Assembly: GCA_009842325.1 (NCBI GenBank)
Contig: VYFQ01000016.1
Coordinates: 16,505 to 80,504 of the forward strand
Reading direction: 5' to 3'
Origin: Acidimicrobiaceae bacterium
GTDB lineage: Bacteria; Actinomycetota; Acidimicrobiia; Acidimicrobiales; Aldehydirespiratoraceae
Length of the DNA: 64,000 bases
The position numbers and the translations under genes were made by a program. Shown here piece by piece: positions 4,276 through 27,852 of this stretch. The notes beneath the pieces were generated by a model. That model saw only the letters and a program-made list of their open reading frames with translations, ran no database searches and was not told where the DNA came from. Position 1 is the first letter of the stretch. The number at the start of each line of letters is the position of its first letter.

Positions 4276-4287
4276 ACGGTATACAGC
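4276..4287. promoter_or_regulatory. GTATAC-core palindromic operator candidate (ACGGTATACAGC), upstream of dppB-like gene
   Basis: This 12-mer is identical to the one at 12904-12915. It lies about 50 nt upstream of the 4335 start. Confidence 0.55.
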
Positions 4288-4334
4288 GCGGCCCGGCACC
4301 CGGGCCAGTTTTGGCCCGGACGGGAGGGAGCGCG

Positions 4335-5255
4335 TTGCTTCGGTGGCTCGCGAGACGCATCATCGCCGCCGCCCTGGTGGTGTTCGTCGTCACTTCCCTG
4401 GTATTCGTAGTCACCCACGTCTTCACCGACCCGGCCACGGTGTCACTGCCGCTGGAGGCCACCGAGGAGCACCGGGCCGACCGCCGGGCCGCCCTCGGGA
4501 TCGACCGCCCCCTGGCAGTGCAGTACTGGGACTTCGTGTCGGGCCTGGTGGTCGGTGACCTCGGCGAGTCGTTCTGGCAGGACCAGCCCGCCTCCAAGCT
4601 CGTGCTGGAGCGGCTGCCGGCCACGCTCAAGCTGGTGGCGGGGGCCACCGCGGTCACGGTGCTGCTGGCCGCGCCCATGGGGATGCTGGCCGCCTGGTGG
4701 GAGCGGCGCTTCGCCGACCACGCCGTTCTCGGCTTCTCGATGGCGTCGATCAGCGCCCCGCCGTTCTGGATCGGCTACCTGCTCATCATCGTCTTCGCGG
4801 TGCAACTCGGTTGGGTGCCGACCTTCGGCTCGCGAGGATTCGTATCGCTGATCCTGCCGTCGTTCGCGATAGGCCTCGCCAGCGCGGGCCGCCTCGCGCA
4901 GATGACCCGCCGGGGCATCGTGGAGGAGCTGCGCAAGCCCTACGCGGTGACGGCGCTGTCGCGGGGCTTCTCCCGGTCGTACACGATCGTGCACCACACC
5001 TTCCGCAACGTGGCCTCGGGCTTCGTGACCATGACCGGCTGGGAGCTGACCCGCATGTTCACCGGCTACACGGTGGTGATCGAGGTGGTATTCGCCTGGC
5101 CCGGCGTGGGCCGCCTCGCCATCCACGCCATCGAGAACCGCGACCTCATCCTGGTGCAGGCCGCGGTGGTGGTGCTGGCCACGCTGGTGGTGGTCACCAA
5201 CCTGCTGGTGGACATCGCCCGCCGGATGATCGATCCCCGGGTGGAGCTGGCATGA
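4335..5255 (+). CDS. ABC transporter permease, peptide/opine/nickel (DppB-like) family
   Basis: ORF 4311..5255. I prefer the TTG at 4335, preceded by GGGAGGGAG (4322-4330), giving the typical N-terminus MLRWLARRII. The polytopic protein has a permease EAA-type loop (YAVTALSRGFSRSYTIVHHTFRN). Confidence 0.85.
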   Translation: MLRWLARRIIAAALVVFVVTSLVFVVTHVFTDPATVSLPLEATEEHRADRRAALGIDRPLAVQYWDFVSGLVVGDLGESFWQDQPASKLVLERLPATLKLVAGATAVTVLLAAPMGMLAAWWERRFADHAVLGFSMASISAPPFWIGYLLIIVFAVQLGWVPTFGSRGFVSLILPSFAIGLASAGRLAQMTRRGIVEELRKPYAVTALSRGFSRSYTIVHHTFRNVASGFVTMTGWELTRMFTGYTVVIEVVFAWPGVGRLAIHAIENRDLILVQAAVVVLATLVVVTNLLVDIARRMIDPRVELA

Positions 5256-6208
5256 CCGCCGTCGACGACACGACGACGTCGGGCGCCGACGCCGGCGCGG
5301 CCGATGCGACATCGCCCGAGGGCGTCACCGTCATGGCCGATCTGCGATCGCACCTGCGCAAGTCCAAGGCGGGCATCTCGGGCATCATCATCTGCTCGGT
5401 GTTCGCGCTGGTGGCCATCGTCGGGCCGTGGCTGCCGTTCCTGCCCGACCCGGCCAAGCAGAGCCTGCCCGACAAGCTCACGCCGCCGGTGGGCTGGGGC
5501 GGCACCTGGGCGCACCCACTCGGCACCGACCAGCTCGGCCGCGACATCCTGGCCCGGCTGATCGACGGCGCCCGCATCTCGCTGCTGGTGGGCCTGGCCG
5601 CGGTCGTCATCGCGGCCATCCTCGGCACGACCCTGGGTCTGATCGCGGGCTACGTCGGCGGGAGGATCGACACCCTCATCATCTCGGCCGCCGACGTGCA
5701 GATGGCCTTCCCGGGCGTTCTGGCCGGGCTGATCCTGGTGGCCGCATTCGGACCGAGCGTGTGGCTGGTCATCGTCGTCATCGCCATCTCCAGCTGGATG
5801 GTGTTCACCAGGGTCGGCCGCAGCCTCGTGCTGACCCTCAAGACGTCGCTGTTCGTGGAAGCCTCCGAGCTCAGCGGCGCGCCGTCGAGCCGGGTCATGT
5901 GGCGTCACCTGCTGCCCAACCTGGTCAGCTCGCTGATCACGCTGTGCGTGCTGGAGCTGGCCGCGGCCATCCTGTCGGAGTCGGCGTTCGCCTTCCTCGG
6001 CTTCGGTGTGCAGCCGCCCCGCTCGTCATGGGGGCTGATGATCCAGCAGGGCCGCAACTACATAACCGACGGATGGTGGATCGTCACCTTCGCCGGCCTG
6101 GCCATCTCCATCGTGGTGCTGGGCGTCAACCTCCTGTCGCTGTGGCTCCAGTCGTTCAACGACGTGGCCGAGCGGGAGCAGATCATCCTGGAGAGGCCGG
6201 GGGGATGA
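5252..6208 (+). CDS. ABC transporter permease, DppC-like
   Basis: The ATG at 5252 overlaps the dppB-like stop (ATGA). It is in frame with listed ORF 4697..6208, whose upstream part is Arg/Pro-rich artefact. The real part has hydrophobic helices and a permease core (LGTDQLGRDILARL). Confidence 0.85.
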   Translation: MTAVDDTTTSGADAGAADATSPEGVTVMADLRSHLRKSKAGISGIIICSVFALVAIVGPWLPFLPDPAKQSLPDKLTPPVGWGGTWAHPLGTDQLGRDILARLIDGARISLLVGLAAVVIAAILGTTLGLIAGYVGGRIDTLIISAADVQMAFPGVLAGLILVAAFGPSVWLVIVVIAISSWMVFTRVGRSLVLTLKTSLFVEASELSGAPSSRVMWRHLLPNLVSSLITLCVLELAAAILSESAFAFLGFGVQPPRSSWGLMIQQGRNYITDGWWIVTFAGLAISIVVLGVNLLSLWLQSFNDVAEREQIILERPGG

Positions 6209-7203
6209 GCACCACCAACGGCGACGGTCGCACCGAGCGCCTGCTGGAGGTGAAAGACCTCACGGTGGGGTTCCCCACCCGGGACGGGATCGTGCGGGGC
6301 GTGGACCACCTGACCCTCAACGTCGGCTCGCACGAGCGCCTCGGCGTGGTGGGCGAGTCGGGCTCGGGCAAGAGCGTCATGGGGCTGGCCATCCTGGGCA
6401 TGGTCCTGCCCCCGGGCCGGATCATGGGGGGCTCGGTGCGCTGGCGGGGCGAGGACGTTCTCGACCCCGCGGTGGCCAACCGGGTGCGGGGACGCGAGAT
6501 CGCCATGATCTTCCAGGATCCGATGGTGTCGCTCAACCCGCTCAAGACCGTCGGCTCGCAGCTGCGCGAGCTGCTGCAGCGCAGGGTCGGCCTGCAAGGC
6601 TCGGAGATCAGGCAACGCTCGCTGGAACTGCTCGACATGGTCGGCATAGCCAACGCGAGCGAGCGCCTGCGGGCCTACGCGTACGAGCTGTCGGGCGGGA
6701 TGCGCCAGCGGGTGATGATCGCCACCGCGCTGGCCTGCGAACCGACGCTGGTCATCGCGGACGAGCCGACCACGGGACTCGACGTGACCATCCAGGACCA
6801 GATCCTCACGCTGCTGCACGACCTGTCCACCGAGCTCGGGATGTCGGTGCTGATGATCACCCACGACCTGGGAGTGGTGGCCCAGTTCTGTGACCGGGTC
6901 CAGGTGATGTACGCCGGCCGCATCGTGGAGCGGGCCCCGATCAACGAGATGTTCACCGATCCCCAGCACCCCTACTCGCTCGGCCTGCTCCATTCGGTGC
7001 CCAGGGTCGACCGCGACGACGGCGAGCTGACGGGCATCCCGGGCGAGCCGCTGGACCGGGCCCAATTCCCGCCGGGCTGCGCGTTCGAGCCCCGATGCAA
7101 CGAGGCCCAGGACGGCTGCCGAGACGCCCCGCCGCCGCTGCTGAAGATCGCGGAGAGGCGCTGGGTGGCCTGCTACAACCGCCCCGCAGAGGGATCGCCA
7201 TGA
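6205..7203 (+). CDS. ABC transporter ATP-binding protein, DppD-like
   Basis: The ATG at 6205 overlaps the upstream stop. Walker A GESGSGKS, signature LSGGMRQR, Walker [14 protein letters not shown]-terminal oligopeptide-type HPYS motif. Confidence 0.9.
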
Positions 7204-8165
7204 ACGCGCCGGTGACACCGCTGGTGGAGAGCCGGGACGTCAGCGTCCACTTCAGCCGCTGGGTGGGCAGCCGCCGGCGGACCGTCTACGCGCTGGACGA
7301 CTTCAGTATCGCGGTAGCGCCGGGCGAGACCGTGGGCCTGGTGGGCGAGTCGGGCTGCGGCAAGTCCACCGCGGGCCGGGCGCTGCTGGGAGCGGTGAAG
7401 CCGACCAAGGGCCAGGTGTTCTTCGAGGGCAGGGACGTGACCGACCTGAACCGGCGGAACTGGCGGGCCATGCGCAAGCAGGTCCAGATGATCTTCCAGG
7501 ACCCCTACTCGGCGCTCAACCCGAAGCTCAAGGTGGGCGAGAGCATCGCCGAGCCGTTCCTGGTGCACACCCGCAAGCGGGGCAAGGAACTCGAGGCGGC
7601 GGTGGCCGAGCTGCTGGAGACGGTGGGCATGACCGCCAGCGCGGCCGACAAGTACCCGCACGCCTTCTCCGGCGGCCAGCGCCAGCGCATCGTGATCGCC
7701 CGAGCCCTCGCGCTCCATCCCTCCTTCGTGGTGGCCGACGAGGCCACCGCGGCCCTCGACGTGTCGATCCAGGCCCAGATCGTCAACCTGCTGGTCGAGC
7801 TCAAGGACACCGTGGGACTGTCGTACCTGTTCATCTCCCACAACCTGGCCGTGGTGCGCCACGTTTCGGACCGGGTGGCCATCATGTACCTGGGCCACCT
7901 GATGGAGATCGGCAGCCACCACGACATCTACGAGAACCCGACCCACCCCTACTCCCAGGCCCTGCTGTCGGCGGTTCCCGTGCCCGACCCCACGACCCGC
8001 CGCAGCCACGAACCCCTCAAGGGCGACCTGCCCAGCCCCATGGACCCACCGAAGGGCTGCCGGTTCAACACCCGCTGCCCCCTGGCAGTGGACCAGTGCT
8101 TCCACGAGCGCCCCCCGCTGACGGAGCGCTCCAGCGGCCACCTGGTGGCCTGCTGGGTGAATTGA
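7200..8165 (+). CDS. ABC transporter ATP-binding protein, DppF-like
   Basis: The ATG at 7200 overlaps the upstream stop (ATGA). Walker A GESGCGKST, signature FSGGQRQR, Walker B FVVADEATAALD, HPYSQALLSAVP motif. Confidence 0.9.
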   Translation: MNAPVTPLVESRDVSVHFSRWVGSRRRTVYALDDFSIAVAPGETVGLVGESGCGKSTAGRALLGAVKPTKGQVFFEGRDVTDLNRRNWRAMRKQVQMIFQDPYSALNPKLKVGESIAEPFLVHTRKRGKELEAAVAELLETVGMTASAADKYPHAFSGGQRQRIVIARALALHPSFVVADEATAALDVSIQAQIVNLLVELKDTVGLSYLFISHNLAVVRHVSDRVAIMYLGHLMEIGSHHDIYENPTHPYSQALLSAVPVPDPTTRRSHEPLKGDLPSPMDPPKGCRFNTRCPLAVDQCFHERPPLTERSSGHLVACWVN

Positions 8166-9364
8166 GCGAACCGGTCACCGGCGCCGTCGGAGGCACAGGC
8201 GGCGGCGAGAGCGGTCTGACCGCCCGCTGGGCGACGTTCGGCTACCTGTTCACGCTGTACTTCATCCTCGGCGGCGCCGAGACCATGATCTCGCCGCTGT
8301 TCCCGCTCGTACGAGAGGACCTGGACCTGTCGGAGAGCAACTTGGCCGCCATCCTGGCCGCGGTGGCGGGCGGCATTGCCGCGTTCAACGTGATCGGCGG
8401 GGCCGTCAGCCGCTGGCTGAGCGACCGGTCGCTGGTGCGGGCCACGGCAGTCAGCCTCGCCGCGGGGATGGCGCTGTCGGCGGTGGCCCCGTCGTTCTGG
8501 GTGCTGCTGGTGGGCCAGACCCTGCTGGGGGTCGCCTTCGGGATCTATTTCCCACCCGCGCTGGCCAGCGTGGCCCGGCTCTACCCGGACGCGCCGGGCA
8601 AGGCCATCGCGGTGTGGGGTCAGGCCTACTCGTTCGGGCTGGCCGCAGCGGCCGCCAGCGCCTTCGCCGGGGGGGCCTGGCGCTGGGTGTACGTCGGGTG
8701 CGCGGTGCCCGCCGCTCTGGCCATCGCCTACGTGCCCCGCTGGACCGAGGTGAACCGGGATCCCGCACCGGTTGCCTGGTTGGCTCAGCTGGCCCAGAAC
8801 GCCCGGAAACGGACCTACCGGCTGGCCTTCTACGCCAGCTTCGGAGGGGTCTCGATGCACTTCGTGGTGATCGGCTTCTCAACGGCGTTCTTCGTCGTGG
8901 ACCGGGGCCTGGACCTGCGGTTGGTGGCCGCGATGCTCATCGCGGGGCGGGCCCTGTCGGCGCCGGTGAAGATCGTCGGGGGCGCCCTCTACGACAAGCG
9001 GGGCGGACCGTGGACGGCCCGGCTGATGATGGTGAGCACATCGGCGCTGGGGCTGCCGATGCTGCTGCTGCCGGCCGACATCGGCGTGTGGCTGCTGGTG
9101 CCGTTCGTGGGCATGGCGGTGTCGGTGCTGCCGGTGGCCAACGCCATGCTGGTGGCCGCGCTGCCTCCCCAGTCGGGCTGGGGGATCGGCACCTTCCGGG
9201 CCGCGCTGCTGGGCTCGGCCGCCCTGCTCTCGGCGATCGCCAGCGGCCTGCTGAGCCTGGGAGTGCCCCTGTTCGCGCTGATGCTGGCCGCGCTGGGCCT
9301 GCCCGCACTGGTGGCCGCCGCCATGCACCGGGCCACGGCACCGGCCGCTCCCGAAGCGCGGTGA
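8162..9364 (+). CDS. MFS transporter
   Basis: Listed ORF 8096..9364. The part upstream of 8162 overlaps dppF. The TTG at 8162 overlaps the dppF TGA (TTGA). The protein is multi-helix and hydrophobic. Start is uncertain. Confidence 0.7.
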   Translation: MSEPVTGAVGGTGGGESGLTARWATFGYLFTLYFILGGAETMISPLFPLVREDLDLSESNLAAILAAVAGGIAAFNVIGGAVSRWLSDRSLVRATAVSLAAGMALSAVAPSFWVLLVGQTLLGVAFGIYFPPALASVARLYPDAPGKAIAVWGQAYSFGLAAAAASAFAGGAWRWVYVGCAVPAALAIAYVPRWTEVNRDPAPVAWLAQLAQNARKRTYRLAFYASFGGVSMHFVVIGFSTAFFVVDRGLDLRLVAAMLIAGRALSAPVKIVGGALYDKRGGPWTARLMMVSTSALGLPMLLLPADIGVWLLVPFVGMAVSVLPVANAMLVAALPPQSGWGIGTFRAALLGSAALLSAIASGLLSLGVPLFALMLAALGLPALVAAAMHRATAPAAPEAR

Positions 9365-9371: not shown

Positions 9372-9851
9372 CTAGGCGGGAACCGGGCAGGCGGTGAGCT
9401 TGTAGGTGTTGAGGCGCTTGCGCAGGGTGTAGAGCAGCAGCGCCACCGCCAGCAGGCCCACGAAGGGCTGGACCGGCGCCCACCACGACAGCGCTCCGCC
9501 CACGCCCACCAGCGCCACCACGGCCTGGTTGCACACCGGGCAGCCCACGGCCAGGAACGACACGAACCCGCCCCAGATGGTGCGGGTGCCCTGGCGCTCG
9601 GCAGCCTCGGCCAATCCGCTGGATTCGGCCGCCTCGGGGCGGATGGCGAAGATCAGCCCGATCAACGCCGAGGTGATGGCCAGGATCACATAGTCGATCC
9701 ATCGCACCTCCACCGGCCGGCCGAAGATGGGCGTGTCGATCAGGTCGGAGGGCACCGCGATGAGCACCGCGGCGATGGCCCCGAAGAGCACCGCCCGCGG
9801 CCAAGTAGCCCGGGGCAGAGCCAGCAGGTCCTTGACTGTGTCGGCGACCAT
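9372..9851 (-). CDS. hypothetical 4-TM membrane protein with intramembrane CPVC motif
   Basis: 159 aa with four hydrophobic segments. GCPVCNQ lies inside the third. No family recognised. Confidence 0.6.
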   Translation of the reverse strand: MVADTVKDLLALPRATWPRAVLFGAIAAVLIAVPSDLIDTPIFGRPVEVRWIDYVILAITSALIGLIFAIRPEAAESSGLAEAAERQGTRTIWGGFVSFLAVGCPVCNQAVVALVGVGGALSWWAPVQPFVGLLAVALLLYTLRKRLNTYKLTACPVPA

Positions 9852-9861
9852 CGAGCGGCCT

Positions 9862-10278
9862 CTAGGTGACCTTGTCGATGACCCGGAAGGCGTAGTCGCG
9901 CTGCTCGTCGCCGAGGGTGGCCCTCACCCGGTAGCCGCCGGGCTTGGGGAACTGGACGATGCCGGTGACCACCAGCGGCGAGCGGCTGTCGGTGCCGGGA
10001 ACCTTGCCGGGCGGGCGGCCGACCTCGATGTTGGCCTTGGCCTCCATCAGCTTGTGGTGGCCGTCCTCGTCCTCGACCCGGATCACCATCTCGTGGCGCT
10101 GGTTGTGCTCCAGCCACGGGACCAGCACCGACAGCGCGATGGAGAAATGCTGCGGTCGGGGCTTCTTGCCCTCCTTGTAGGCCCGGGTGACGGTGTCCCA
10201 TCCCGCGCCCATCAGGTACAGCAGCCCGTTCTGCACCTCGGCATGGTTGGCCAGCGTCAGCAGCTCGATCCGGGCCAC
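9862..10278 (-). CDS. hypothetical protein (138 aa, soluble)
   Basis: Normal composition. It lies 10 nt upstream of the 9372..9851 gene on the same strand. No family confidently recognised. Confidence 0.6.
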   Translation of the reverse strand: MARIELLTLANHAEVQNGLLYLMGAGWDTVTRAYKEGKKPRPQHFSIALSVLVPWLEHNQRHEMVIRVEDEDGHHKLMEAKANIEVGRPPGKVPGTDSRSPLVVTGIVQFPKPGGYRVRATLGDEQRDYAFRVIDKVT

Positions 10279-10349
10279 AAGCGGCAGTCTAAGCCTGCTC
10301 CCGGAGAGCCACCGCCAGAGCCGGCGGGCAGGCCGGCCGGAGGGATCGG

Positions 10350-11900
10350 CTACTGGTCGTCGGCCGGGGCGAGGCCCAGACGCTCGGCCAGGCCGATGCG
10401 CTGGAGCTTGCCGGTGGGGCCCTTGGGCAGCTCGTCGAGCACCAGGATCCGGCGGGGAACCTTGAACGCGGCCAGCGACTGCGACAGGAACCGGCGAAGC
10501 TCCCGCTCGTCGACGGGGCTCCCGGCAGTGGTGGCCACGACCGCGGCGGCCACCTCCTCGCCCAGCTTGGGGTGGGGCACGGCGAAGGTGACCGCCTGGG
10601 CCACCGACGGGTGGCCCAGCAGGGCCTCGTCCACCTCGAGCGGGGAGACCTTCTCACCGCCGCGGTTGATCTGCTCCTTGAGGCGGCCGGTGAGGAACAG
10701 GTAGCCGTCGTCGTCGAGGTAGCCCTCGTCGCCGGTGCGGAACCAGCCATCGGTGAAGGAGGCCGCGTTGGCCTCGGGGTTGTTCTCGTAGCCGTCGATC
10801 ACGGTCGAGCCCTTGATCGACACCTCTCCACGCTCGCCGGGTGGCAGCGGCCGGTTCCGGTCGTCGAGCACGGCCAGCTCGATGCCGGTGGGAACCCCGA
10901 CCGACCGGGGCTTGGCCATCGCCGGGGGCAGGGGGTTGGCGCACATCTGGTGGGTGGCCTCGGTCATGCCGTAGGCCTCGATCACGGGCGCGCCGAACAG
11001 CTCGCCCAGTTCGTGCAGCACCGGGGCCGGAAGAGACGCCGACGAAGACCTCACGAAGCGCAGACCGGCCGCCCGGGCCGTGTCGCGGTGACGGTCCGAG
11101 CGGGAGATCACCATCTGATGCATGGTCGGGACCGCGGTGTAGTAGGTGGGCTCCAGGGCTTCGAGCTGCACGAAGAACCGGAAGGCGTCGAAGCCCTCGG
11201 TGCAGGCGACCGCGCCCCCCGCCGACAACGGCGCCAGCAGACCGGCCAGCAGCCCGTGGATATGGAACAGCGGCATCACCTGCAGTGACCGGTCACCGGG
11301 AGTCAGGGCGAGCGACTCGGCGATGCCCGCGGCCGAGCGGGCCAGGTGCCGCTGGCGCAGCGGGACGATCTTGGGCCGCGACGTGGTGCCGGAAGTGTGC
11401 AGCACCAGGGCCACGTCGTCTGCGGTGGGACGGCCCGGCGCGGGCGCGCCGCCCGCCCCGGACCCGGCGACCAGATCGAGCGCACCGGCACGGCCGTTGA
11501 CCGAGCCGGTCAGCGACACCGGCAGCACGGCGGCACCAGCCTCACCGGCCGCGGCCCGGGCGACAACTCCGGAGTCGTCGGGCAGGGTGACCAGCGCCTT
11601 GGCACCGAGGTCGTCCAGGTAGAAGCGCAGCTCGTCGGTGCGGTACTTCGGGTTGAGCGGCGCGGCGCATCCGGTGCAGGCCGCGGCCAGGAAGGCGAGA
11701 GCCATCTCGGGCCCGTTGGGAACGACGATGGCGATGCGGTCGGCCGGACCCAAGCCGAGACTTCGGAGCCGGCCCGCGAGCCGGTCCACCTCGGACCGCA
11801 TCTCGGCGTGAGTGAGCACCGAGCCATCGGGCGCAACGATCGCCGGCGCGTCGTCGGCTCCGGCCGAGAGCAGGCCCCGCAGCGTCTCGCCGGCCGTCAT
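10350..11900 (-). CDS. acyl-CoA synthetase / AMP-dependent ligase
   Basis: The ATG at 11900 overlaps the upstream stop (ATGA). AMP-binding motifs LVLHTSGTTSRPKIV, EAYGMTE and GWFRTGDEGYLDDDGYLFLTGRLKEQINRGGEKV are present. The listed 638-aa ORF carries a spurious N-terminal extension. Confidence 0.9.
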   Translation of the reverse strand: MTAGETLRGLLSAGADDAPAIVAPDGSVLTHAEMRSEVDRLAGRLRSLGLGPADRIAIVVPNGPEMALAFLAAACTGCAAPLNPKYRTDELRFYLDDLGAKALVTLPDDSGVVARAAAGEAGAAVLPVSLTGSVNGRAGALDLVAGSGAGGAPAPGRPTADDVALVLHTSGTTSRPKIVPLRQRHLARSAAGIAESLALTPGDRSLQVMPLFHIHGLLAGLLAPLSAGGAVACTEGFDAFRFFVQLEALEPTYYTAVPTMHQMVISRSDRHRDTARAAGLRFVRSSSASLPAPVLHELGELFGAPVIEAYGMTEATHQMCANPLPPAMAKPRSVGVPTGIELAVLDDRNRPLPPGERGEVSIKGSTVIDGYENNPEANAASFTDGWFRTGDEGYLDDDGYLFLTGRLKEQINRGGEKVSPLEVDEALLGHPSVAQAVTFAVPHPKLGEEVAAAVVATTAGSPVDERELRRFLSQSLAAFKVPRRILVLDELPKGPTGKLQRIGLAERLGLAPADDQ

Positions 11901-12903: not shown

Positions 12904-12915
12904 ACGGTATACAGC
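12904..12915. promoter_or_regulatory. GTATAC-core operator candidate (ACGGTATACAGC), upstream of panE-like/acyl-CoA synthetase operon
   Basis: Identical 12-mer to 4276-4287. It lies about 35 nt upstream of the GTG at 12874. Confidence 0.55.
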
Positions 12916-13107: not shown

Positions 13108-13147
13108 GCGACAGGACCCGCCGGCCGGAGGGCAAGCCCCCTGCGCG

Positions 13148-17620: not shown

Positions 17621-17723
17621 CGCCACGGACGGCATCTCATTAGCCGGCGCGAACTGCCAAGACCAACGAAAGCGGTAACCGACGGGTTGCACCCGCACCT
17701 ATAGCAGTGTACAATGAAATATC

Positions 17724-18146: not shown

Positions 18147-18191
18147 GCACACCCTCAACGACCCCCACCTAGCGCCCCCGACCCAGCGTCG

Positions 18192-19900: not shown

Positions 19901-20596
19901 CTAATTCTGCAGGCTGTTGAGCCAGTCGATGACGTGGTCCAGGGGGGCCACGTCGGCGTACTTCATGTGCAGGTCGAGCAGGTTGACCTTGTGGGAAATC
20001 TGGCTGCGGTCGGCGACGCACTCGAAGGGGATGACCACGTCGAAGTTGTACTGGAAGGCGTCCACCGCGGTGGCCCGCACGCAGCCGCTGGTGGTCAGCC
20101 CGGTGACCACCACCGTGTCCACCCTGTCGTAGACCAGCAGGGCGGCCAGTTCGGTGCCGAAGAACCCGCTCGGCTTGTGGCTCTTGCAGATCACCAGCTC
20201 GTCCGGCTTGGGAGCCAGCTCGTCCACGATCACGTCGCCCGGGGGCAGATCCTCCGCGGGCGGGCGGCGGCCCACCGTCTTCCAGCGTCCCTTCTGGCCC
20301 GGGAAGGGAACGTGGCCCGGATCGGCGTAGAGCTTGGTGAAGTACACCGGGTAGCCGAGCCGGCGGAACTCGTCCAGCAGCCGGGCGTTGGCGTCCACTG
20401 CGGGCCATGCCGTCTCGGGGCAGCCGGTGGGCCAGCGGCCGTCCACGAAGGCCAGCGTCATGTCGACCACGACCAGCGCCGGCGAGGTGCCCGCGCTGAT
20501 GGCCCGGAACTCGTCGCCGCTGAACGTGTCGCCATATCCGGCCGCTAGGTACCGGGCCGTGTCGTCGGGGGGTATGGCGTCGTGCCAGGGGTACAT
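19901..20596 (-). CDS. isochorismatase-family cysteine hydrolase (amidase-like)
   Basis: Asp-Lys-Cys pattern: ALVVVDM, KSHKPSGFFGT, VVVTGLTTSGCVRATAVDA. Confidence 0.85.
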   Translation of the reverse strand: MYPWHDAIPPDDTARYLAAGYGDTFSGDEFRAISAGTSPALVVVDMTLAFVDGRWPTGCPETAWPAVDANARLLDEFRRLGYPVYFTKLYADPGHVPFPGQKGRWKTVGRRPPAEDLPPGDVIVDELAPKPDELVICKSHKPSGFFGTELAALLVYDRVDTVVVTGLTTSGCVRATAVDAFQYNFDVVIPFECVADRSQISHKVNLLDLHMKYADVAPLDHVIDWLNSLQN

Positions 20597-20626
20597 GCCG
20601 GCGTTGGAGAGTTAGAGAGAAGCCCA

Positions 20627-20667
20627 CGAGGGAGCACGACCGGTCCTCATCGGGTCGTGCTCCCTCG
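20627..20667 (-). terminator. intrinsic-terminator-like hairpin after the binding-protein gene
   Basis: Perfect 15-bp inverted repeat CGAGGGAGCACGACC / GGTCGTGCTCCCTCG with an 11-nt loop. It lies 31 nt downstream of the stop at 20698. On the minus strand it is followed by a CUUCUCUCU-containing tract. Confidence 0.6.
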
Positions 20668-20697
20668 CAGGTGGAGGGGACCGTTAGGCCTCGACGA

Positions 20698-22587
20698 TCA
20701 GCTCAGCGTCATGTCCTCCACGCGAGCCGTGTCGTCGTAGCGCGGGATCCAACTGAGGTTCTCGGCGCCGCCGTTCACGCTCAGGTAGGTGAGGAGCGGG
20801 AGGATGCCGACGTTGTCGCAGTTGTACTTCATGATCTCGTGGTACTGGGCCTCGCGGGTGGGTTCGTCGAGCTCGCTGGCAGCCGCCTCGAGCATGCCGA
20901 CCAGGACAGGATCGTCGTAGGACGATGTCACGTTGTCACGGCCGATGTAGGAGCCCAGCCGGGCGCCGTCCTGGAGCTCGTTGGAGGAGGACGACAAGAA
21001 AATGTCGCCGCCGACCTCGCCGATCGGCTTGAGGAACTCGTCGAAGAGCCAGACCTCCCAGGCCAGCAGCTGGAAGTCGATGTTCAGCCCGACGGCTGCC
21101 ATGTCGGCCGCGATGGCCTCGGAGAGCTCGTCGAACTTGGTCCAGCGGGTGCCGTTGGCCAGGAACGAGATCTCCTCGCCCTGATAGCCGGAGTCGGCGA
21201 TGATCTGGCGGGCCAGGTCCGGATCGTAGGGCCGGTCGTTGATGTTGGGATTGTGGCCGAACACGCCCGAGCCGAAGATGTGGCAGTGGGCCCGGCCGGC
21301 CTGGCCCTCGTAGATGAACTCGACGTAGTCGTCCACGTTGAGGGCGTGGGCGATGGCTACCCGCAACTCGGGATAGTCGCCAAGGGGTCCCTCGTAGTTC
21401 TTCAGCCGCAGGTACGGGTACTCGATGCCCTCGTCGCGTACGAACAGCTTGGGCATCTCACCAGCCGAGTCGGCTGAGAGGCCGACGGCCAGGTCAACGT
21501 CTCCGGCCTGCACGGCCGTCACCCGGGACTGCTCATCGGGCAGGAACACGAACGTCACGTCGTCGATCTGCGGCTCGGGGCCCCAGTAGTCGGTGTTGCG
21601 GGTGAGCGTCAGGGAGTCGCCGGCAATCCACTCGACGAACTTGTAGGGGCCGGTGCCGACCGCTTCGTCCTCGAGGCCGTCGGCGGCCGCTCCGGGCTCG
21701 ACCATCTGCACCATGTACAGCCGGGCCGGCAGCACCGGGTCGGGTCCGTCGGTATTGATGCGGATGGTGTAGTCGTCGACGACATCCACGCCGGTGATCT
21801 TCTCGACCTGTTCCTTGAGGTCGGAGTCAATCTCGCCGTGGATGATGCGCTCGATCGAGTACTTGGCCGCGGCGGCGTTGAAGGGGGCGCCGTTGTGGAA
21901 GTTGATGTCCCGGCGCAGCTTGAGCTCCCAGGTGGTCTCGTCGACCAGCCTCGGCAGCGACGCGGCCAGCCTCGGCACGAAGATCGACGGGTTCACGAGG
22001 TCGCGCTCGAGGAGCCGCTCGTACACGTTCTCCATGGTGCGGCGCATCTCGCCGTCCTGGTAGTGGGGATCGATCCGGCCGGGACCCTCGAGGATGGCGA
22101 TGGTGATCGACTCGGGCGCCTCGGCGGCCATCATGGCCGCGTCAGCGGCAGCCGCGGCCTCCTCGGCCTCGGCAGCAGCGGCGTCGGCCTCAGCCTCGGC
22201 GGCAGCAGCAGCCTCGTCAGCAGCCGCAGCGGCCGCGGCAGCCTCAGCCTCAGCCTCCTGGGCGGCGGCCAACTCGGCTTGCAGCGCTGCGAGTTCGTCG
22301 GCACTGGCAGCCCCTTCGGCCTCTGCAGCAGCCAGAGCAGCCGCGGCCTCCTCGGCCTCGGCGGCCGCGGCAGCGGCCTCGGCAGCGGCGGCGTCAGCCT
22401 CCGCCTGCGCCGCGGCGGCCTCCGACTCGGCAGCGGCGGCCGCAGACTCTGCCTCGGCAAGCGCGGCGGCGTCTGCCGCGCTGGTATCCGGAGCCGCCGG
22501 TTCGTCGTCGCCGCACGCGGCCGCAACGAGAGTAAAGACGAACAGCGCAGCCATGAGCCGCTGCATGAACGTGAACTTCTTCAACAT
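20698..22587 (-). CDS. ABC transporter substrate-binding lipoprotein, family 5 (peptide/opine/nickel), with long Ala/Glu-rich stalk
   Basis: Signal peptide plus lipobox (FTLVAAAC). An Ala/Glu low-complexity segment of about 125 aa follows. Then comes a family-5 SBP core (ITIAILEGPGRIDPHY ... VGTGPYKFVEW ...). Confidence 0.85.
   Translation of the reverse strand: MLKKFTFMQRLMAALFVFTLVAAACGDDEPAAPDTSAADAAALAEAESAAAAAESEAAAAQAEADAAAAEAAAAAAEAEEAAAALAAAEAEGAASADELAALQAELAAAQEAEAEAAAAAAAADEAAAAAEAEADAAAAEAEEAAAAADAAMMAAEAPESITIAILEGPGRIDPHYQDGEMRRTMENVYERLLERDLVNPSIFVPRLAASLPRLVDETTWELKLRRDINFHNGAPFNAAAAKYSIERIIHGEIDSDLKEQVEKITGVDVVDDYTIRINTDGPDPVLPARLYMVQMVEPGAAADGLEDEAVGTGPYKFVEWIAGDSLTLTRNTDYWGPEPQIDDVTFVFLPDEQSRVTAVQAGDVDLAVGLSADSAGEMPKLFVRDEGIEYPYLRLKNYEGPLGDYPELRVAIAHALNVDDYVEFIYEGQAGRAHCHIFGSGVFGHNPNINDRPYDPDLARQIIADSGYQGEEISFLANGTRWTKFDELSEAIAADMAAVGLNIDFQLLAWEVWLFDEFLKPIGEVGGDIFLSSSSNELQDGARLGSYIGRDNVTSSYDDPVLVGMLEAAASELDEPTREAQYHEIMKYNCDNVGILPLLTYLSVNGGAENLSWIPRYDDTARVEDMTLS
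22117..22497 (-). repeat. Ala/Glu-coding low-complexity tract (residues ~31-157 of the binding lipoprotein)
   Basis: The translation is almost entirely A, E, D, S, Q and L (AAEAEADAAAAEAEEAAAAA...). The DNA is GCN/GAR-rich without an exact period. Confidence 0.8.
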
Positions 22588-22659: not shown

Positions 22660-22671
22660 ACGGTATACCGG
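22660..22671. promoter_or_regulatory. GTATAC-core operator candidate (ACGGTATACCGG) upstream of orphan binding-protein gene
   Basis: Near-perfect 12-bp palindrome. It pairs with the second site 32 bp away. Confidence 0.5.
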
Positions 22672-22691: not shown

Positions 22692-22703
22692 GTTGTATAC
22701 AGC
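22692..22703. promoter_or_regulatory. GTATAC-core operator candidate (GTTGTATACAGC) upstream of orphan binding-protein gene
   Basis: Second site in the 258-bp intergenic region. Confidence 0.5.
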
Positions 22704-22845: not shown

Positions 22846-24006
22846 TCATTCCCGGTTGAAACGAGGCCGGCAGAACAGGGCCGCCGGACCGACCAACGCG
22901 ACCGTGGCCGCCAGCACAGCCGGTCCCAGCCCCACCACCAGCAGGGCGGCCACACCCAGCGGCGCGCCGGACAGGGTGACACCCCGGGCGACCCCCGCGA
23001 TGGTCACCGCGTCGCCCTGAAGCTCGGGACGGACCGCCTCGCTCACCGCGGTGATGGCCAGAACCTGCAACAGGCCGATGGCCGCGCCGCCGGCCACGAG
23101 CGCGGCCGTGATCAGCGCCACGGGCAGTTCGAAGCCCACCAGTGCGGTGGCCACCAGGGTGACGGCGCCCCAGCGGGCCACGCCGGGGGCCACCCGCGAG
23201 CCTTCCGTGTCGACCGCGAGGTAGCCGCTCACCGCGGCCGCGCCGTTGGCCACCGCTACCACCACGCCGATGACGGTCTCGCTGCTGCCGGCCGCGTCGA
23301 GCCCGATGGGCACATAGGAGCCCAGCAGGCCTCGCCAGGCACCGACCGCGACGCTGGCCCAGACGCCCACTCGCACTCCCGGGTTGCGCAGCAGCTGGAG
23401 GTAGCTGTGGCCGCCCACCCGGGCGAACGGGGGCGGGCGCGACAGCGCCAGCGTGGGCGCGATGCCGGCCAGGGCCACCGCGGATGCGACCGCGAACGCG
23501 GCCCGGTACGAGCTCTGGGCAATGATCCCGCCCGCCGCCGGCCCGATCAGCATGCCGATGGTGGCCACCATGTTGAGGGTGGCGATCGCCCTGGAAGTCG
23601 ACCGGGCCGATCGCACGATCTGCACCTGGTTGCCCGTCCAGAAGCAGGCCCGGGCCACACCCTGCACCGCGGCCGAGACGACCAGCGCGACCAGCCCCGA
23701 CTCGAAGACCAGCAACCCGACCGAGAGGCCCAGCAGCACCGCCGCGGCGGTGATGACGTCGGAGTTGGACATGACCCGCATCACCGAGCCGAGCCGCGAC
23801 CGGGTCAGCACCTGCACCGCGGCCGAGAACCCCACCAGCACTCCCGCCACCGTCGGTGACCGGCCCTGATCGATCACGAACAGCGGGTAGGCCACCACCG
23901 TCACGCCCAGGCTCAGCGAGAACAGCAGCGCTCCCGCGTACTGGCCCACTACCTCCCGCCGCGCCGCCGGGTCGGCCGCGCCGCCGGAGGCGGGACCGTC
24001 AGTCAC
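22846..24006 (-). CDS. MFS transporter
   Basis: 386 aa polytopic protein. The start overlaps the upstream ALDH stop by 8 nt. Confidence 0.75.
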   Translation of the reverse strand: MTDGPASGGAADPAARREVVGQYAGALLFSLSLGVTVVAYPLFVIDQGRSPTVAGVLVGFSAAVQVLTRSRLGSVMRVMSNSDVITAAAVLLGLSVGLLVFESGLVALVVSAAVQGVARACFWTGNQVQIVRSARSTSRAIATLNMVATIGMLIGPAAGGIIAQSSYRAAFAVASAVALAGIAPTLALSRPPPFARVGGHSYLQLLRNPGVRVGVWASVAVGAWRGLLGSYVPIGLDAAGSSETVIGVVVAVANGAAAVSGYLAVDTEGSRVAPGVARWGAVTLVATALVGFELPVALITAALVAGGAAIGLLQVLAITAVSEAVRPELQGDAVTIAGVARGVTLSGAPLGVAALLVVGLGPAVLAATVALVGPAALFCRPRFNRE

Positions 24007-25513
24007 GCGCCGGCGTGATGGCGATGCTGATGGCCTTGGAACGGGTGTGGCTCAAGATGTCGTCGACGAGGCCCAGCTCCTTGCCGATGCCCGACTGCTT
24101 CCAGCCTCCGAAGGGCAGGCCCGGGTAGCGCACCTCCACGTCGTTGACCCACACGTAGCCGGCGTCGATGGCCCGGGCCGCGCCGAGCGCCCGGTTCACA
24201 TCGTTGCTCCAGATGCTGGCGGTCAGCCCGTAGGGGGTGTCGTTGGCCATGGCAACGGCGTCGGCCGCCTCGGTGAAGGAAGTCACGGCCAGGACGGGCC
24301 CGAATATCTCCTGTTGGGCGATGGTGGCGCCGTGGTCCACACCGTCGAACACGGCCGGCCGGATGAAGGCGCCCGCGGCGAGCCGCGGATCGGCCGGGGA
24401 CGTGCCACCGGTGAGCAGCCGCCCGCCGTCGACCCTGCCCGCCTCGACGAACCCCAGGATCCGGTCGCGGTGGGCGTGCGACACCATGCAGCCCATGTCA
24501 GACGACGGATCGTCGGGCATGCCGATACGGATCTGCTCGGTCGACTCCACCACCCGCTCGAGCACGGCCTCACGCAGCCCGGCGTGAATGAGGAGCCGGC
24601 TGGTGGCGCCGCAGCTCTGCCCGCCCACCCGGGCGAAGTTCGAGCCCTTCACCACCGCGGCCGCGGCGGTGTCGGGGTCGACGTCGTCGAAGATCAAGAT
24701 GGGGTTCTTGCCGCCCAGCTCCAGGGTGACGCTCTTGAGGACCCCCGACGCGCCGGCGCGGGCCTGCACCGCCAGACCGGTGCGCAGCGAGCCGGTGAAC
24801 GACACCCGGGGCACGTCGGGGTGCCCGACCAGGGCCTCGCCCGCGGCCGCTCCCCCCGGCACCACGTTGAGCACGCCCTCCGGCAGCAGATCGGCGGCCA
24901 GCGAGGCGATCACCAGCGGCGACAACGGAGTCTGCTCGGCCGGCTTGAGCACCACCGAATTGCCCGCGGCCAGCGCGGGCGCGGCCTTCATGCAGGTGAA
25001 GAGGGTGGGATGGTTGTAGGCGCACACCGCCGCGACCACGCCCCACGGAGCGGGCTCGGTGAAGTGCAGCCCGGCGGGCGTGGCCGGGATGGTCCTTCCG
25101 TGGAGTTCGGGGGCCACTCCCGCGATGGTCTGGAGGAACTTGCCGCCCTTGGCCGCGCTGGCCGCCATGGAGGAGACCGCGGTGCCGCCGTCGCGGGCAT
25201 CGAGCAGGCCCAGCCGGGGCGCGGCCTCCGCCACCCGCCGGCCCCACTCGGCCAGCCGGGCGGCCCGCTCGTGGACTCCCATGGCGGCCCACGCCGGCTG
25301 CGACCGGGCCGCGGCCGCCACAGCCCGGTCGACGTCGGCCGCGGACGCCTGATGCACCCGGGCCAGGACCGCACCTGTGGAAGGGCAGACATCGTCGCGC
25401 ATGGCGGCGTCGCCGTCGGCCGATGCCACCGCGCGGCCGCCGATCCACATCGGGACGGCGGCGCCGGCAGACGCTCCGGCCGGCAGGTCGAGCAGGTCTG
25501 TCAGCGCAGACAT
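23999..25513 (-). CDS. aldehyde dehydrogenase family protein
   Basis: Motifs: LKPAEQTP, FTGS, ELGGKNP, catalytic Cys region GGQSCGATSRLLI, EIFGPV. Confidence 0.9.
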   Translation of the reverse strand: MSALTDLLDLPAGASAGAAVPMWIGGRAVASADGDAAMRDDVCPSTGAVLARVHQASAADVDRAVAAAARSQPAWAAMGVHERAARLAEWGRRVAEAAPRLGLLDARDGGTAVSSMAASAAKGGKFLQTIAGVAPELHGRTIPATPAGLHFTEPAPWGVVAAVCAYNHPTLFTCMKAAPALAAGNSVVLKPAEQTPLSPLVIASLAADLLPEGVLNVVPGGAAAGEALVGHPDVPRVSFTGSLRTGLAVQARAGASGVLKSVTLELGGKNPILIFDDVDPDTAAAAVVKGSNFARVGGQSCGATSRLLIHAGLREAVLERVVESTEQIRIGMPDDPSSDMGCMVSHAHRDRILGFVEAGRVDGGRLLTGGTSPADPRLAAGAFIRPAVFDGVDHGATIAQQEIFGPVLAVTSFTEAADAVAMANDTPYGLTASIWSNDVNRALGAARAIDAGYVWVNDVEVRYPGLPFGGWKQSGIGKELGLVDDILSHTRSKAISIAITPARD

Positions 25514-25546
25514 GGTGATGGGCCCGCAACCGGGCCGGCTACAGGC

Positions 25547-26266
25547 TCAGGCCGCGGCCTGGGCGCCGGCCTCGGGGTACCACTGGCGGCCCTCCACGTA
25601 CTGCAGCCACAGCCCGTCCATATAGAACCAGCGCTTCATGGCGGCCAGGCGCACCTGTTCGATCACCGTCCGCTGGTCCCGCTCGTCGACCGAATGGTTG
25701 GTGATGATCTCGAAGCCGGCGTCGCCGTGCTCGACATCGGCCACGACGTGCAGGGTGAAGAACTCGATGTCGGTGTCGGAGAACCCGTAGACGTTGCGCA
25801 GCGGGTCGATCAGCGGCGCGTACAGATCGGGCACCTGCGACTCCAGCCCGATGGTGAGGGTGGCGATGCCCTCCAGCACGCTCTTCATCATCAGCGTGTT
25901 GATGATGAAGTCCTTGAGGGCGGCGGTGGTGGGCAGATCGGGGGCCGACCGCCCCTCCTCGAAGGTCATGCCCAACGCCATGCCGAAGCGGGAGAGCAGA
26001 TCGACGTGGCGCTCGTCGGGATCCTCCTCCTCGTTGAGGTTCTCCAGCAGCAGTTCCCGGGCGTCGTGCCAGTCGCACAGCCCGTACATGATCCCGGAGT
26101 AGCGCGACGCATTGCTGACGAAGTTGAAGTGCTGCTGGCAATAGGCCCTCATGGCCGCGTTGGACAGCTCGCCTGCAGCCCAGGTCTTGAAGAACGGATG
26201 GTTCTTGGAGTGCCACTCGTCGCGGGCGGCCTCCAGGGCCTTGCGGTATTCGACGGGTCCGAGCAT
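25547..26266 (-). CDS. PqqC/TenA/CADD-like (haem-oxygenase-like fold) protein
   Basis: 239 aa. It has HPFFKTWAAGELS, ENLNEEEDPDERHVDLLSRFGMALG and FFTLHVVADVEHGD, a layout typical of PqqC-like iron-containing redox enzyme families. Confidence 0.7.
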   Translation of the reverse strand: MLGPVEYRKALEAARDEWHSKNHPFFKTWAAGELSNAAMRAYCQQHFNFVSNASRYSGIMYGLCDWHDARELLLENLNEEEDPDERHVDLLSRFGMALGMTFEEGRSAPDLPTTAALKDFIINTLMMKSVLEGIATLTIGLESQVPDLYAPLIDPLRNVYGFSDTDIEFFTLHVVADVEHGDAGFEIITNHSVDERDQRTVIEQVRLAAMKRWFYMDGLWLQYVEGRQWYPEAGAQAAA

Positions 26267-26311
26267 GGGAAGCCTCTTTCTGTTGTGAGTTGAGTGATCG
26301 CGGGCGCCGGG

Positions 26312-27766
26312 CTAGGAGCGCATATAGACGGTCTTGGTGCGGGTGAAGAACTCGAGCGACGACTCCCCGCCCTCGGCCCAGCCGGCACCGGAGTGCCCGT
26401 AACCCTCGAAAGGCACATGGAAGGGGACGCCGGTGAGGGGCGAGTTGACCTTGACGGTGCCTGCGTGCGAGCCCTTCCAGAAGCGGCGGGCCACTGCGAT
26501 GTCGCCGGTGACGATGCCGGAGGTGAGGCCGTAGGCGGTGGCGTTGGCCATGGCGACGGCCTCGTCGATGTCGCCAACCGGCTCGTAGGTCACGACCGGA
26601 CCGAAGATCTCCTCGGTAGTCAGCGGACCCGTGGACGGATCCACCAGCAGGGCGGGCGCCACCCGGCCGTCGCGCCAGCCGCCGGGCTCGGGGCGGACCA
26701 CGTCGCGGGCCTGGTGCTCGGCCAGGGACACGTAGTCCTCGACCCGGCCGGCCTCGCCGTCGCTGACCATGATCCCGAGTTCATCGTCGCCGGACGTGTC
26801 GGTCATGGCCTCCAGCCGGGCCGTCAGCACCGCCAGCAGGTCGTCGTAGACGTCGGTGTGCACCAGCAGCCGCCCGGCCGCGGTGCAGATCTGGCCGTTG
26901 TTGCGGAAGCTCGAGGCAACGATGATGTCGGCCGCCTTGTCGAGGTCGGCGTCGGCCCACACCACGATGGTGTTCTTGCCGCCCAGCTCGGCCTGGAACG
27001 GCACCTCCATCCGCAGCCGGCTGCGGATGTCCACCGCGGCCTCGTAGGAGCCGGTGAGGCTCACGCCGTCGAGCTCGGGGGCGGACAGCAGGGCGTCGGT
27101 GATCACCGAGCTCCGGCCGATGGTGGCGTGCAGCAAGCCGGCGGGCACGCCGGCGTCGAGCAGGGTGGCGGCGATCATCAGGCCGGTTATGCCGGCGTTG
27201 GTGGACGGCTTGAAGATCACGGCGTTGCCGGCGGCCAGGGCGGCCGACAGCTTGCGGATGGGGATCGTGAACGGGAAGTTCCAGGGGGTGATGAGGGCCA
27301 CGGTGCCGAGCGGCTCGATAAGGGTGAAGATGTCCTCGTCGAAGTCGGTGGAGTAGGTGGTCCCCAGGCGCCGGTAACCGAGCTCGGCGTAGTAGTCGAG
27401 CACGGCCGCCCCCTTGGCCACCTCGACCCGGGCCTCCGAGGCCGGCTTGCCCATGTCGGCGGAGATGATGGGGGCCAGCTCGTCGGCCCGCTCAAGGAAC
27501 AGCCCGGCGGCACGGTGCAGCACCGCGGCCCGGGCTGCGGGACCCAGCGCGGCCCAGTCCGGCGCCGCTTGGGCGGCCGCCTCGTATGCGGTGCGGACGT
27601 CTTCGGGGCCGGCGCTGCGCATCACGGCCAGCACCCGGCCGTCGCTCCGGCTGACCAGCTTCTGCTCGGGGCCCGAGCCGGGCCGGATGGCGCCGTCGAT
27701 CAGGATGCCGACCTCGTCGGCGTCACCTGTGCCGTCCACGGTGATCCGAGCAGGTACCTGCGTCAT
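26312..27766 (-). CDS. aldehyde dehydrogenase family protein
   Basis: Motifs: FKPSTNAG, LTGS, ELGGKNT, NNGQICTAAGRLLV, EIFGPV. Confidence 0.9.
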   Translation of the reverse strand: MTQVPARITVDGTGDADEVGILIDGAIRPGSGPEQKLVSRSDGRVLAVMRSAGPEDVRTAYEAAAQAAPDWAALGPAARAAVLHRAAGLFLERADELAPIISADMGKPASEARVEVAKGAAVLDYYAELGYRRLGTTYSTDFDEDIFTLIEPLGTVALITPWNFPFTIPIRKLSAALAAGNAVIFKPSTNAGITGLMIAATLLDAGVPAGLLHATIGRSSVITDALLSAPELDGVSLTGSYEAAVDIRSRLRMEVPFQAELGGKNTIVVWADADLDKAADIIVASSFRNNGQICTAAGRLLVHTDVYDDLLAVLTARLEAMTDTSGDDELGIMVSDGEAGRVEDYVSLAEHQARDVVRPEPGGWRDGRVAPALLVDPSTGPLTTEEIFGPVVTYEPVGDIDEAVAMANATAYGLTSGIVTGDIAVARRFWKGSHAGTVKVNSPLTGVPFHVPFEGYGHSGAGWAEGGESSLEFFTRTKTVYMRS

Positions 27767-27826
27767 GGTGTGCCTCCACCAGCGTGCGCATCGCCCGCGA
27801 GGCGGGCGCGCCGCGCACGACCGCGC

Positions 27827-27838
27827 TTTGTATACAGG
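27827..27838. promoter_or_regulatory. GTATAC-core operator candidate (TTTGTATACAGG) in divergent ALDH / MFS promoter region
   Basis: It lies between the ALDH start (27766, minus) and the MFS start (27895, plus). Confidence 0.5.
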
Positions 27839-27840
27839 AC

Positions 27841-27852
27841 GCCGTATACCCT
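27841..27852. promoter_or_regulatory. GTATAC-core operator candidate (GCCGTATACCCT), second site of the pair
   Basis: Its centre is 14 bp from the first site. Confidence 0.4.

Follow-up and report, generated by a model that had tools for sequence, protein, structure and literature searches.

Why does one palindromic hexamer, GTATAC, recur in promoter after promoter of a G+C-rich gene island, and which protein recognizes it? The question is raised by a 64,000-nt stretch of DNA (here called the window) from an uncultured Acidimicrobiaceae bacterium (contig VYFQ01000016.1 of assembly GCA_009842325.1, positions 16,505 to 80,504 of the forward strand; positions below are counted from the first letter of the window). 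A sequence-only reading of this DNA had listed seven GTATAC sites and proposed that they mark a dispersed regulon. We found that the recurrence is real, that the sites are very likely to be functional operators, and that a GntR-family protein encoded in the same island probably binds them and acts as a repressor.

GTATAC recurs in intergenic DNA far beyond chance

The window contains 11 copies of GTATAC. Dinucleotide-preserving shuffles gave a mean of 1.24 copies and a maximum of 6, and none of 100 shuffles reached 11; the recurrence is confirmed as real and far beyond chance. Seven copies lie at 4279, 12907, 17612, 22663, 22695, 27830, and 27844, exactly where the sequence-only reading had placed them, and the 12-mers that it quoted match as well. 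Its list was incomplete, because it lacked four further copies at 48573, 48593, 53986, and 54006, which are associated with two vapBC modules and are treated separately below. We made a gene map from the frame bias in G+C content at third codon positions (GC3) and checked it by Pfam. On this map, intergenic DNA makes up only 3,261 nt (5.1%) of the window and yet holds 9 of the 11 copies, bearing out the claim that the excess lies in intergenic promoter DNA.

We then trained a weight matrix on the 14 half-sites of the seven sites. In a scan of the window, high scores were found only at these seven sites, and a GTGTAC variant at 17707 was picked up as well. The sites and this variant, with their distances to the start codons of the genes that they face, are as follows (ALDH, aldehyde dehydrogenase; MFS, major facilitator superfamily).

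4277..4286: site 1, CGGTATACAG, center 53.5 bp 5' of the dppB start codon (TTG at 4335)
12905..12914: site 2, CGGTATACAG, center 35.5 bp 5' of the PanE start codon (GTG at 12874, minus strand)
17610..17619: site 3, CTGTATACAA, center 14.5 bp 5' of the VOC start codon (GTG at 17600, minus strand)
17705..17714: candidate weaker site, CAGTGTACAA, core GTGTAC, weight-matrix score 8.6
22661..22670: site 4 (proximal), CGGTATACCG, 78.5 bp 5' of the SBP_bac_5 start codon (22587, minus strand)
22693..22702: site 5 (distal), TTGTATACAG, 110.5 bp 5' of the SBP_bac_5 start codon
27828..27837: site 6, TTGTATACAG, in the divergent ALDH_b/MFS_d region, 66.5 bp to the ALDH_b ATG (27766) and 62.5 bp to the probable MFS_d GTG (27895)
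27842..27851: site 7, CCGTATACCC, 14 bp from site 6, 80.5 bp to ALDH_b and 48.5 bp to MFS_d; its weight-matrix score of 12.3 is the weakest of the seven

Could the recurrence be an artifact of composition or of repeats, arising from AT-rich intergenic words, repetitive extragenic palindromic (REP) sequences, miniature inverted-repeat transposable elements (MITEs), or restriction-site bias? GTATAC does have the form of a type II restriction-site palindrome, and intergenic DNA is more AT-rich than coding DNA, although barely so (68% versus 70% GC). When over-represented intergenic hexamers were ranked by Poisson probability, TATACA, which overlaps GTATAC, came first (4e-14) and GTATAC itself second (4e-12), and the next value was 6e-5. 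No AT-rich palindrome or hexamer of the same composition was enriched besides GTATAC, and no other AT-rich palindromic hexamer had more than two copies in the intergenic DNA of the window. A dispersed repeat of the REP or MITE kind is excluded, since similarity between sites stops 2 bp outside the core. Finally, the conservation of the sites at orthologous positions in dozens of genomes, described below, is incompatible with chance. We therefore give the artifact explanation a negligible probability.

The sites are symmetric, orientation independent, and placed as repressor operators might be

The motif derived from 113 non-redundant sites, a set gathered by exact core and in which only the flanks carry information, is a 10-bp palindrome, C-K-GTATAC-M-G, with information of about zero beyond ±2. 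The consensus C(G/T)GTATAC(A/C)G that had been read from the window alone was thus recovered from a much larger set. The element is orientation independent, because the identical 12-mers at 4279 and 12907 are oppositely oriented with respect to their genes.

Each site lies 5' of the first gene of an operon, with 14 to 110 bp separating the center of the site from the start codon. Between 4.2 and 28 kb, all intergenic regions that precede an operon and measure 85 bp or more contain a site, and the regions without a site are short intra-operon gaps or a convergent gap. At 32 to 64 kb, the right half of the window, none of 15 intergenic regions carries such a site. The transcription units that the sites precede were assigned by Pfam, in one case together with the gene map.

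4335..9364, plus strand: dppB-dppC-dppD-dppF-MFS, genes overlapping by 4 bp
9372..12874, minus strand: PanE-like reductase, AMP-binding acyl-CoA synthetase, DUF6941 protein, hypothetical protein (Pfam and gene map)
13148..17600, minus strand: VOC/glyoxalase protein, FAD monooxygenase, RidA/YjgF protein, NAD epimerase, amidohydrolase
17724..19769, plus strand: hypothetical protein with a weak aspartyl-protease-like match (hyp17724), gamma-glutamyltransferase (GGT)
19901..22587, minus strand: SBP_bac_5 solute-binding lipoprotein (SBP5), isochorismatase-family hydrolase
22846..27766, minus strand: ALDH, CADD/heme-oxygenase-like protein, ALDH, MFS transporter (TIGR04305 below cutoff)
27895..29145, plus strand: MFS transporter (MFS_d), divergent from the ALDH operon

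We placed the start of MFS_d at 27895 because a conserved GAGAGGA ribosome-binding site is followed there by GTG.

TANNNT is the −10 pattern of actinobacterial promoters, and several sites overlap such a −10-like hexamer on the gene strand: TACAGT at site 3, TACCGT at site 4, and TACCCT, facing MFS_d, at site 7. The overlap with TACAGT suggests that the promoter at site 3 is of the leaderless type. The GTGTAC candidate, centered 14.5 bp 5' of the hyp17724 start codon (17724, plus strand), is the mirror image of site 3. In the SBP5 promoter, a conserved TTTGCA block is followed after 18 nt by a TANNNT hexamer, and the second operator-like site, site 5, lies just 5' of this −35-like block (TTTGCA/TTGCG). 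Judged from sequence, this placement is consistent with repressor-type geometry.

The same overlaps could be taken to mean that GTATAC is not an operator but a directional promoter element, a −10-like box for the housekeeping sigma factor or an alternative one. The hexamer upstream of vapB (below) does resemble a −10 box, since it reads G-TATACT and lies 6 nt before a start codon that has no ribosome-binding site. At the regulon sites, however, the flanks mirror each other, with C-K before the core and M-G after it, and T follows the core in only 3 of 226 half-sites, so that TATACT is not formed. The two identical 12-mers point opposite ways with respect to the genes that follow them, the distance from site to start codon is not fixed, two copies per promoter are found at spacings of 14 and 32 bp, and the element is missing from the intergenic regions of the right half of the window. 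On grounds of symmetry and orientation we reject a −10 box reading of the regulon sites, and a promoter element as the general explanation for GTATAC appears very improbable.

An Rfam scan covering all of the window was without hits, and the conserved blocks are thus not accounted for by any known RNA element. Two hairpins were seen near the sites. One, a probable terminator between the amidohydrolase stop codon and the PanE operator, is long and perfect (GTCAGATGACCGAC...GTCGGTCATCTGAC, 13050-13110). The other, GGCCCGG/CCGGGCC followed by a short T run (4285-4320), lies between site 1 and the dppB ribosome-binding site, and a similar G+C-rich hairpin is found at the same place upstream of dppB in loci L080-L084.

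The sites are conserved as invariant islands in drifting intergenic DNA

The sequence-only reading had named the comparison of orthologous promoters as a check on its proposal, and in this comparison we found the sites to be conserved among related genomes. We used 39 orthologous loci (L001-L039), annotated by tblastn with the proteins of the window, and 40 loci of distant homologues of the GntR protein described below (L040-L079). Of the orthologous loci, 22 retain the 32-bp pair 5' of SBP5 and 25 retain the 14-bp pair of the ALDH_b/MFS_d region, these being counts of species-level genomes. In each pair, both hexamers are invariant while the spacer (26 bp in the SBP5 pair) and the flanks drift. 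Some more distant loci have a single exact hexamer in the ALDH_b/MFS_d region. Altogether, about 127 hexamers occur in the orthologous loci, nearly all of them at equivalent promoter positions and about 10 elsewhere. These comparisons support the view that the sites are phylogenetic footprints.

The linkage between site and gene survives rearrangement for PanE, SBP5, ALDH_b/MFS_d, VOC/GGT, and dppB. The site upstream of PanE is kept in L006, L014, L028, L034, L080, L081, L091, L092, and L094, and it persists when PanE stands beside the GGT or the isochorismatase gene. When PanE lies directly 3' of SBP5, no separate site precedes it, and the site upstream of SBP5 stays. Equivalents of site 3 are present in L091-L094 and L036, with a one-mismatch variant, GTATAT, at the same position in L095 and L096, and a site 3-type hexamer is kept between PanE and GGT in L013 and L085. 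At the position of the weaker GTGTAC candidate, on the hyp17724 side, L093 has an exact GTATAC and L091 and L092 have a one-mismatch variant. The dppB site is found at −55 in L080-L086, whether the upstream neighbor is an MFS, AAA ATPase, or Rieske oxygenase gene, and two distant loci, L040 and L044, also have GTATAC upstream of dppB.

Relatives also carry the hexamer in front of further genes. It is found about 40 bp 5' of a YjgF/HbpS-like operon that runs into POR-MFS (the equivalent in our genome lies to the left of position 1), about 115 bp 5' of a Rieske oxygenase gene, and 14 bp 5' of a luciferase-like gene. These three are likely to be further members of the regulon in the relatives. 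As a negative control, we looked at homologues of the VOC-FAD monooxygenase genes (about 60% identity) from soil metagenomes, and found no linked GntR homologue and no consistent GTATAC.

A GntR regulator is encoded within the island

The candidate for the binding protein is encoded just beyond the last of these units.

31322..31984, plus strand: GntR regulator of the FadR subfamily (FCD), 220 aa

The sequence-only reading had recognized a FadR-subfamily GntR gene here, with a start at 31316. The family assignment held, and the start is most likely the TTG at 31322, which gives 220 aa, as in the orthologues. The location of the true start 6 nt downstream is the probable reason why an exact look-up of the 222-aa version of the protein returned no record. 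The protein has a GntR winged helix-turn-helix domain (Pfam PF00392, E = 1e-19, residues 13-74) and a C-terminal FCD effector domain (PF07729, E = 1.3e-23), and the closest solved structures are FCD-type GntR regulators. Residues H133, H137, H179, and H201 are invariant in 24 orthologues, and R46 and R50 are likewise invariant among orthologues.

Orthologues with 61 to 100% identity come from Acidimicrobiaceae, Acidimicrobiales, and Candidatus Aldehydirespirator metagenome-assembled genomes, many of them sponge derived. Shuffling has been extensive, yet in each of the 39 orthologous loci the gene is found inside the island. A tblastn search found no second GntR-family gene in the window, in which the other regulators encoded are one LysR protein and two RHH (ribbon-helix-helix) antitoxins.

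More distant homologues of GntR (44 to 55% identity) were found in Ilumatobacteraceae, Iamia, and others, and 14 of their 40 loci have an exact GTATAC in the 250 bp upstream of the gene. The hexamer had a density of 1.40/kb in these 250 bp versus 0.068/kb elsewhere, a difference of about 20-fold (binomial P = 2.7e-13), and the signal spans about 7 to 8 independent lineages. In several families of Acidimicrobiia, the distant homologues almost always adjoin an SBP5-dppBCDF operon, and the hexamer is frequently found upstream of this operon too. Ancestrally, the regulon may have been centered on the SBP5-dppBCDF transporter.

Upstream of the gntR gene of the window, the sequence-only reading had seen a degenerate copy, GACTGTCTACCCGG. 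It is present, at 31237-31250 rather than 31238-31251, and corresponds to the following element.

31239..31248: possible low-affinity variant, CTGTCTACCC, core GTCTAC, 48.5 bp to Epim_b and 78.5 bp to GntR

The weight-matrix score of this variant (GTCTAC at 31241) is 7.3, a background level that is matched by many random hits in coding DNA. TGTCTAC is kept in most GntR orthologues, and its last base differs in three of them (GTCTAA, GTCTAT, and GTCTAG). The conserved blocks 5' of GntR are better read as the promoter of the gene. By conservation across L001-L039, this promoter (31252-31321) consists of TTCCTA (−35-like), 18 nt, and TAACAT, and the orthologues differ from TAACAT only at the N positions of TANNNT. 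In L005, L008, L009, L012, and L039, a CCCGAT...TATCGGG inverted-repeat block is duplicated 5' of GntR. Directly 3' of GntR (31985-34594, plus strand) lies a gene for a fusion protein of up to 869 aa, comprising four phosphoglucomutase/phosphomannomutase (PGM) domains and a DeoC/LacD-type aldolase domain. This gene has no exact GTATAC of its own, and its adjacency to GntR is kept in most orthologous loci.

The motif and the regulator resemble known FadR-subfamily systems

Classical operators of the FadR subfamily, like those described here, are short A/T-centered palindromes with conserved GT and AC, present as single or double sites near catabolic or transport operons that adjoin the regulator gene. 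They differ in that they usually have T-K...M-A boxes, whereas the boxes here are the G/C-rich C-K...M-G, matching the 70% GC genome. The classical regulators have an all-helical FCD domain and repress until released by an effector, and we propose the same for the GntR of the island. Known operator cores include TTGTATACAA for Bacillus subtilis GntR and TGGTATACCA for Escherichia coli UxuR/ExuR. The FadR-subfamily consensus has been given as NyGTM-N0-1-KACNy (PMC4494728), and the GTA/TAC found here fits it as GTM-N0-KAC.

The closest parallel is DipR (ASR91163.1) of Alcaligenes faecalis JQ135, a GntR/FadR repressor that was shown by electrophoretic mobility shift assay, footprinting, and mutagenesis to bind 5'-GTATAC-3' (PMC11472048). 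DipR binds six promoters of the dipicolinate (dip) cluster and is released by the substrate (PMC11472048). The core of its operator is the identical hexamer, and a one-mismatch variant, GWATAC, is tolerated. The DipR sites serve six transcription units of one catabolic cluster; here there are seven exact sites in five promoter regions. Pairs of sites occur in divergent intergenic regions in both systems, and the dip sites overlap −10, −35, and start regions. DipR residues R63, R67, H196, and H218 correspond to R46, R50, H179, and H201 here at a single offset of −17. We take this match as a sign of consistency rather than of orthology, because these positions are generically important in FCD regulators.

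The two systems also differ. DipR is betaproteobacterial and has an autoregulation site, whereas the window belongs to the Acidimicrobiia and has no clear exact site at the regulator gene. The island is larger than the dip cluster, at about 27 kb and at least 7 units, and its gene set includes a Dpp ABC transporter, GGT, VOC/FAD monooxygenase, two ALDHs, and a CADD-like protein.

NanR of E. coli, likewise a FadR-subfamily GntR protein, recognizes words of the GGTATA type (PMC8012715), with which site 4 (CGGTATACCG) can be compared. NanR differs in that three dimers bind cooperatively to (GGTATA)3 direct repeats (PMC8012715), whereas the sites here are isolated inverted repeats.

The linked GntR as the probable repressor of the island

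We assign the linked GntR as the binding protein because it is embedded in all of the orthologous loci, because its distant homologues have GTATAC upstream and adjoin SBP5-dppBCDF, because the sites match the FadR consensus, and because DipR provides a precedent. We put the probability that it binds the sites and acts as a repressor at about 0.7. In the model that we propose, a ligand-free GntR dimer would bind the 10-bp palindrome C-K-GTATAC-M-G through its winged helices. One or two operator copies per promoter, overlapping or flanking the −10 and transcription-start region, would allow it to repress at least 7 transcription units with about 23 genes between 4.3 and 29 kb. The repressed set would comprise the Dpp-type ABC transporter with the orphan binding protein, three MFS transporters, and the oxygenase, amidohydrolase, aldehyde dehydrogenase, and GGT enzymes. 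A small molecule, probably either the substrate that is transported or a catabolite formed early, would act as effector by binding the FCD domain, which is predicted to contain a metal, and the effector-bound GntR would leave the DNA, so that the island would be expressed. In this scheme we infer the identity of the binding protein, repression over activation, and the effector, for an organism that is uncultured.

It is also conceivable that the sites are real and are bound by another transcription factor, for example a GntR-family paralogue encoded outside the window, and that the linked GntR controls the PGM-DeoC or Epim_b operon instead. The window covers only 64 kb, and the binding protein could be encoded elsewhere in the genome. 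GntR is also conserved beside the PGM-DeoC fusion gene, which lacks an exact site, its own promoter has no clear GTATAC, and distant loci often have two GntR paralogues around the Dpp operon. Within the window, however, the LysR protein and the two antitoxins are the only other regulators, none of them suitable. The linked GntR has stayed inside the island in every orthologous locus through all rearrangements, and its distant homologues carry GTATAC directly upstream of themselves. We consider a different binding protein unlikely.

Further observations weigh against the linked GntR as repressor or against parts of the scheme. The region upstream of GntR holds only the background-scoring, imperfectly conserved GTCTAC, and classical autoregulation, known for DipR and for the distant homologues, is not evident at this gene. 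Many of the distant loci carry the second GntR paralogue (32 to 37% identity) on the far side of the transporter, and the association of GTATAC with the family could belong partly to that paralogue. The dppB site is absent from the more distant genomes L037, L038, and L089. Scans of five promoter regions with sigma-70 and terminator consensus sequences gave no matches, and because of the sigma-70 result the overlap between operator and promoter rests on a manual reading of TANNNT.

The earlier proposal that the GTATAC palindrome is a GntR/FadR-type operator of a dispersed regulon is nonetheless supported by the footprints, by the linkage to GntR, and by the DipR literature. The regulatory principle is textbook, a known type of switch in a new organism, and DipR is a near-exact experimental precedent.

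The additional GTATAC copies belong to two vapBC modules

What, then, are the four copies in the right half of the window? Two small genes whose products start with MRRIQLY each carry one pair at the 5' end, at 48573/48593 and at 53986/54006. Both products are RHH_1 antitoxins (7e-9 and 2e-9), and each gene is followed by an overlapping PIN-domain gene (1e-12 and 1e-13). The two vapBC modules form a 634-nt, 82%-identical inverted pair (47969-48602 and 53982-54615) around 5,379 nt. Because the modules are a paralogous inverted repeat, the four hexamers have their origin in a single paralogous promoter.

The upstream hexamer, G-TATACT, ends 6 nt 5' of the vapB ATG, which lacks a ribosome-binding site (48568-48603, minus strand; 53981-54016, plus strand), and the −10 box of a leaderless promoter is its most plausible reading. 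The downstream hexamer lies 20 bp from the first and is formed by codons 3 to 5 (CGT-ATA-CAG). The DNA itself appears to be constrained here, because ATA, a rare codon, is kept in a genome with a GC3 of about 0.9. In two related genomes (L001:18693-18718 and L013:18396-18421), the vapB copies retain both hexamers. The downstream hexamer may be an autoregulatory operator for VapB.

We set the vapB hexamers aside as members of the regulon, since they are paralogous copies that fit the CK...MG flanks poorly and the upstream one is better explained as a TATACT −10 box. It is quite unlikely that the GntR of the island also binds the vapBC promoters and links the catabolic regulon to the toxin-antitoxin modules. 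If it did, toxin-antitoxin expression would be tied to the availability of the substrate.

Between the two vapBC modules lie genes for an enoyl-CoA hydratase, OsmC, a GCS2-family ligase, an ALDH, and a 474-aa protein without a family match, and the inverted pair resembles a composite element or a substrate for inversion. Directly 3' of the first module, a GNAT acetyltransferase gene is split into 47602-48021 and 47431-47583 (minus strand), probably by a frameshift or as a pseudogene.

Other genes of the window

Two further genes in the right half of the window deserve mention. A UGSC-family (PF24696) gene at 58202-58915 (minus strand) was called as two open reading frames (ORFs) but is one frame with a single in-frame TGA (58718-58720), which precedes G-S-C ('IGD-U-GSC'). 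Because the frame is continuous and the TGA is followed by G-S-C, this TGA is a candidate selenocysteine codon and the gene a candidate selenoprotein gene. The coding score of the ORF at 54857-56968 (minus strand) is unusually low. Its product has a [2Fe-2S]-binding domain together with a weak molybdopterin-binding fragment, and the ORF may represent a decayed gene of the xanthine dehydrogenase family.

What the island may degrade

Can the substrate of the island be read from its enzymes? In NCBIfam searches, only a family-level model for indolepyruvate-ferredoxin oxidoreductase scored above the cutoff, and no enzyme was an equivalog of a known pathway step. We gave up on predicting the substrate because no enzyme reached an NCBIfam equivalog cutoff. 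The nitrogen-containing compound suggested by the sequence-only reading would be a reasonable guess, in view of the amidohydrolases, GGT, RidA, and the hydrolase of the isochorismatase family. A megablast search of the PLSDB plasmids with 25 kb gave weak ABC-ATPase matches only, and no annotated relative.

In sponge-associated Acidimicrobiales that are uncultured (Candidatus Aldehydirespirator and relatives), the motif ties together about 23 to 27 genes that are not otherwise connected, among them two kinds of transporter, oxygenases, amidohydrolases, aldehyde dehydrogenases, and GGT. It can be used to predict more members of the regulon in related genomes. The ligand of one protein, GntR, would tell what the island degrades, and this protein offers a practical entry to an uncharacterized pathway.

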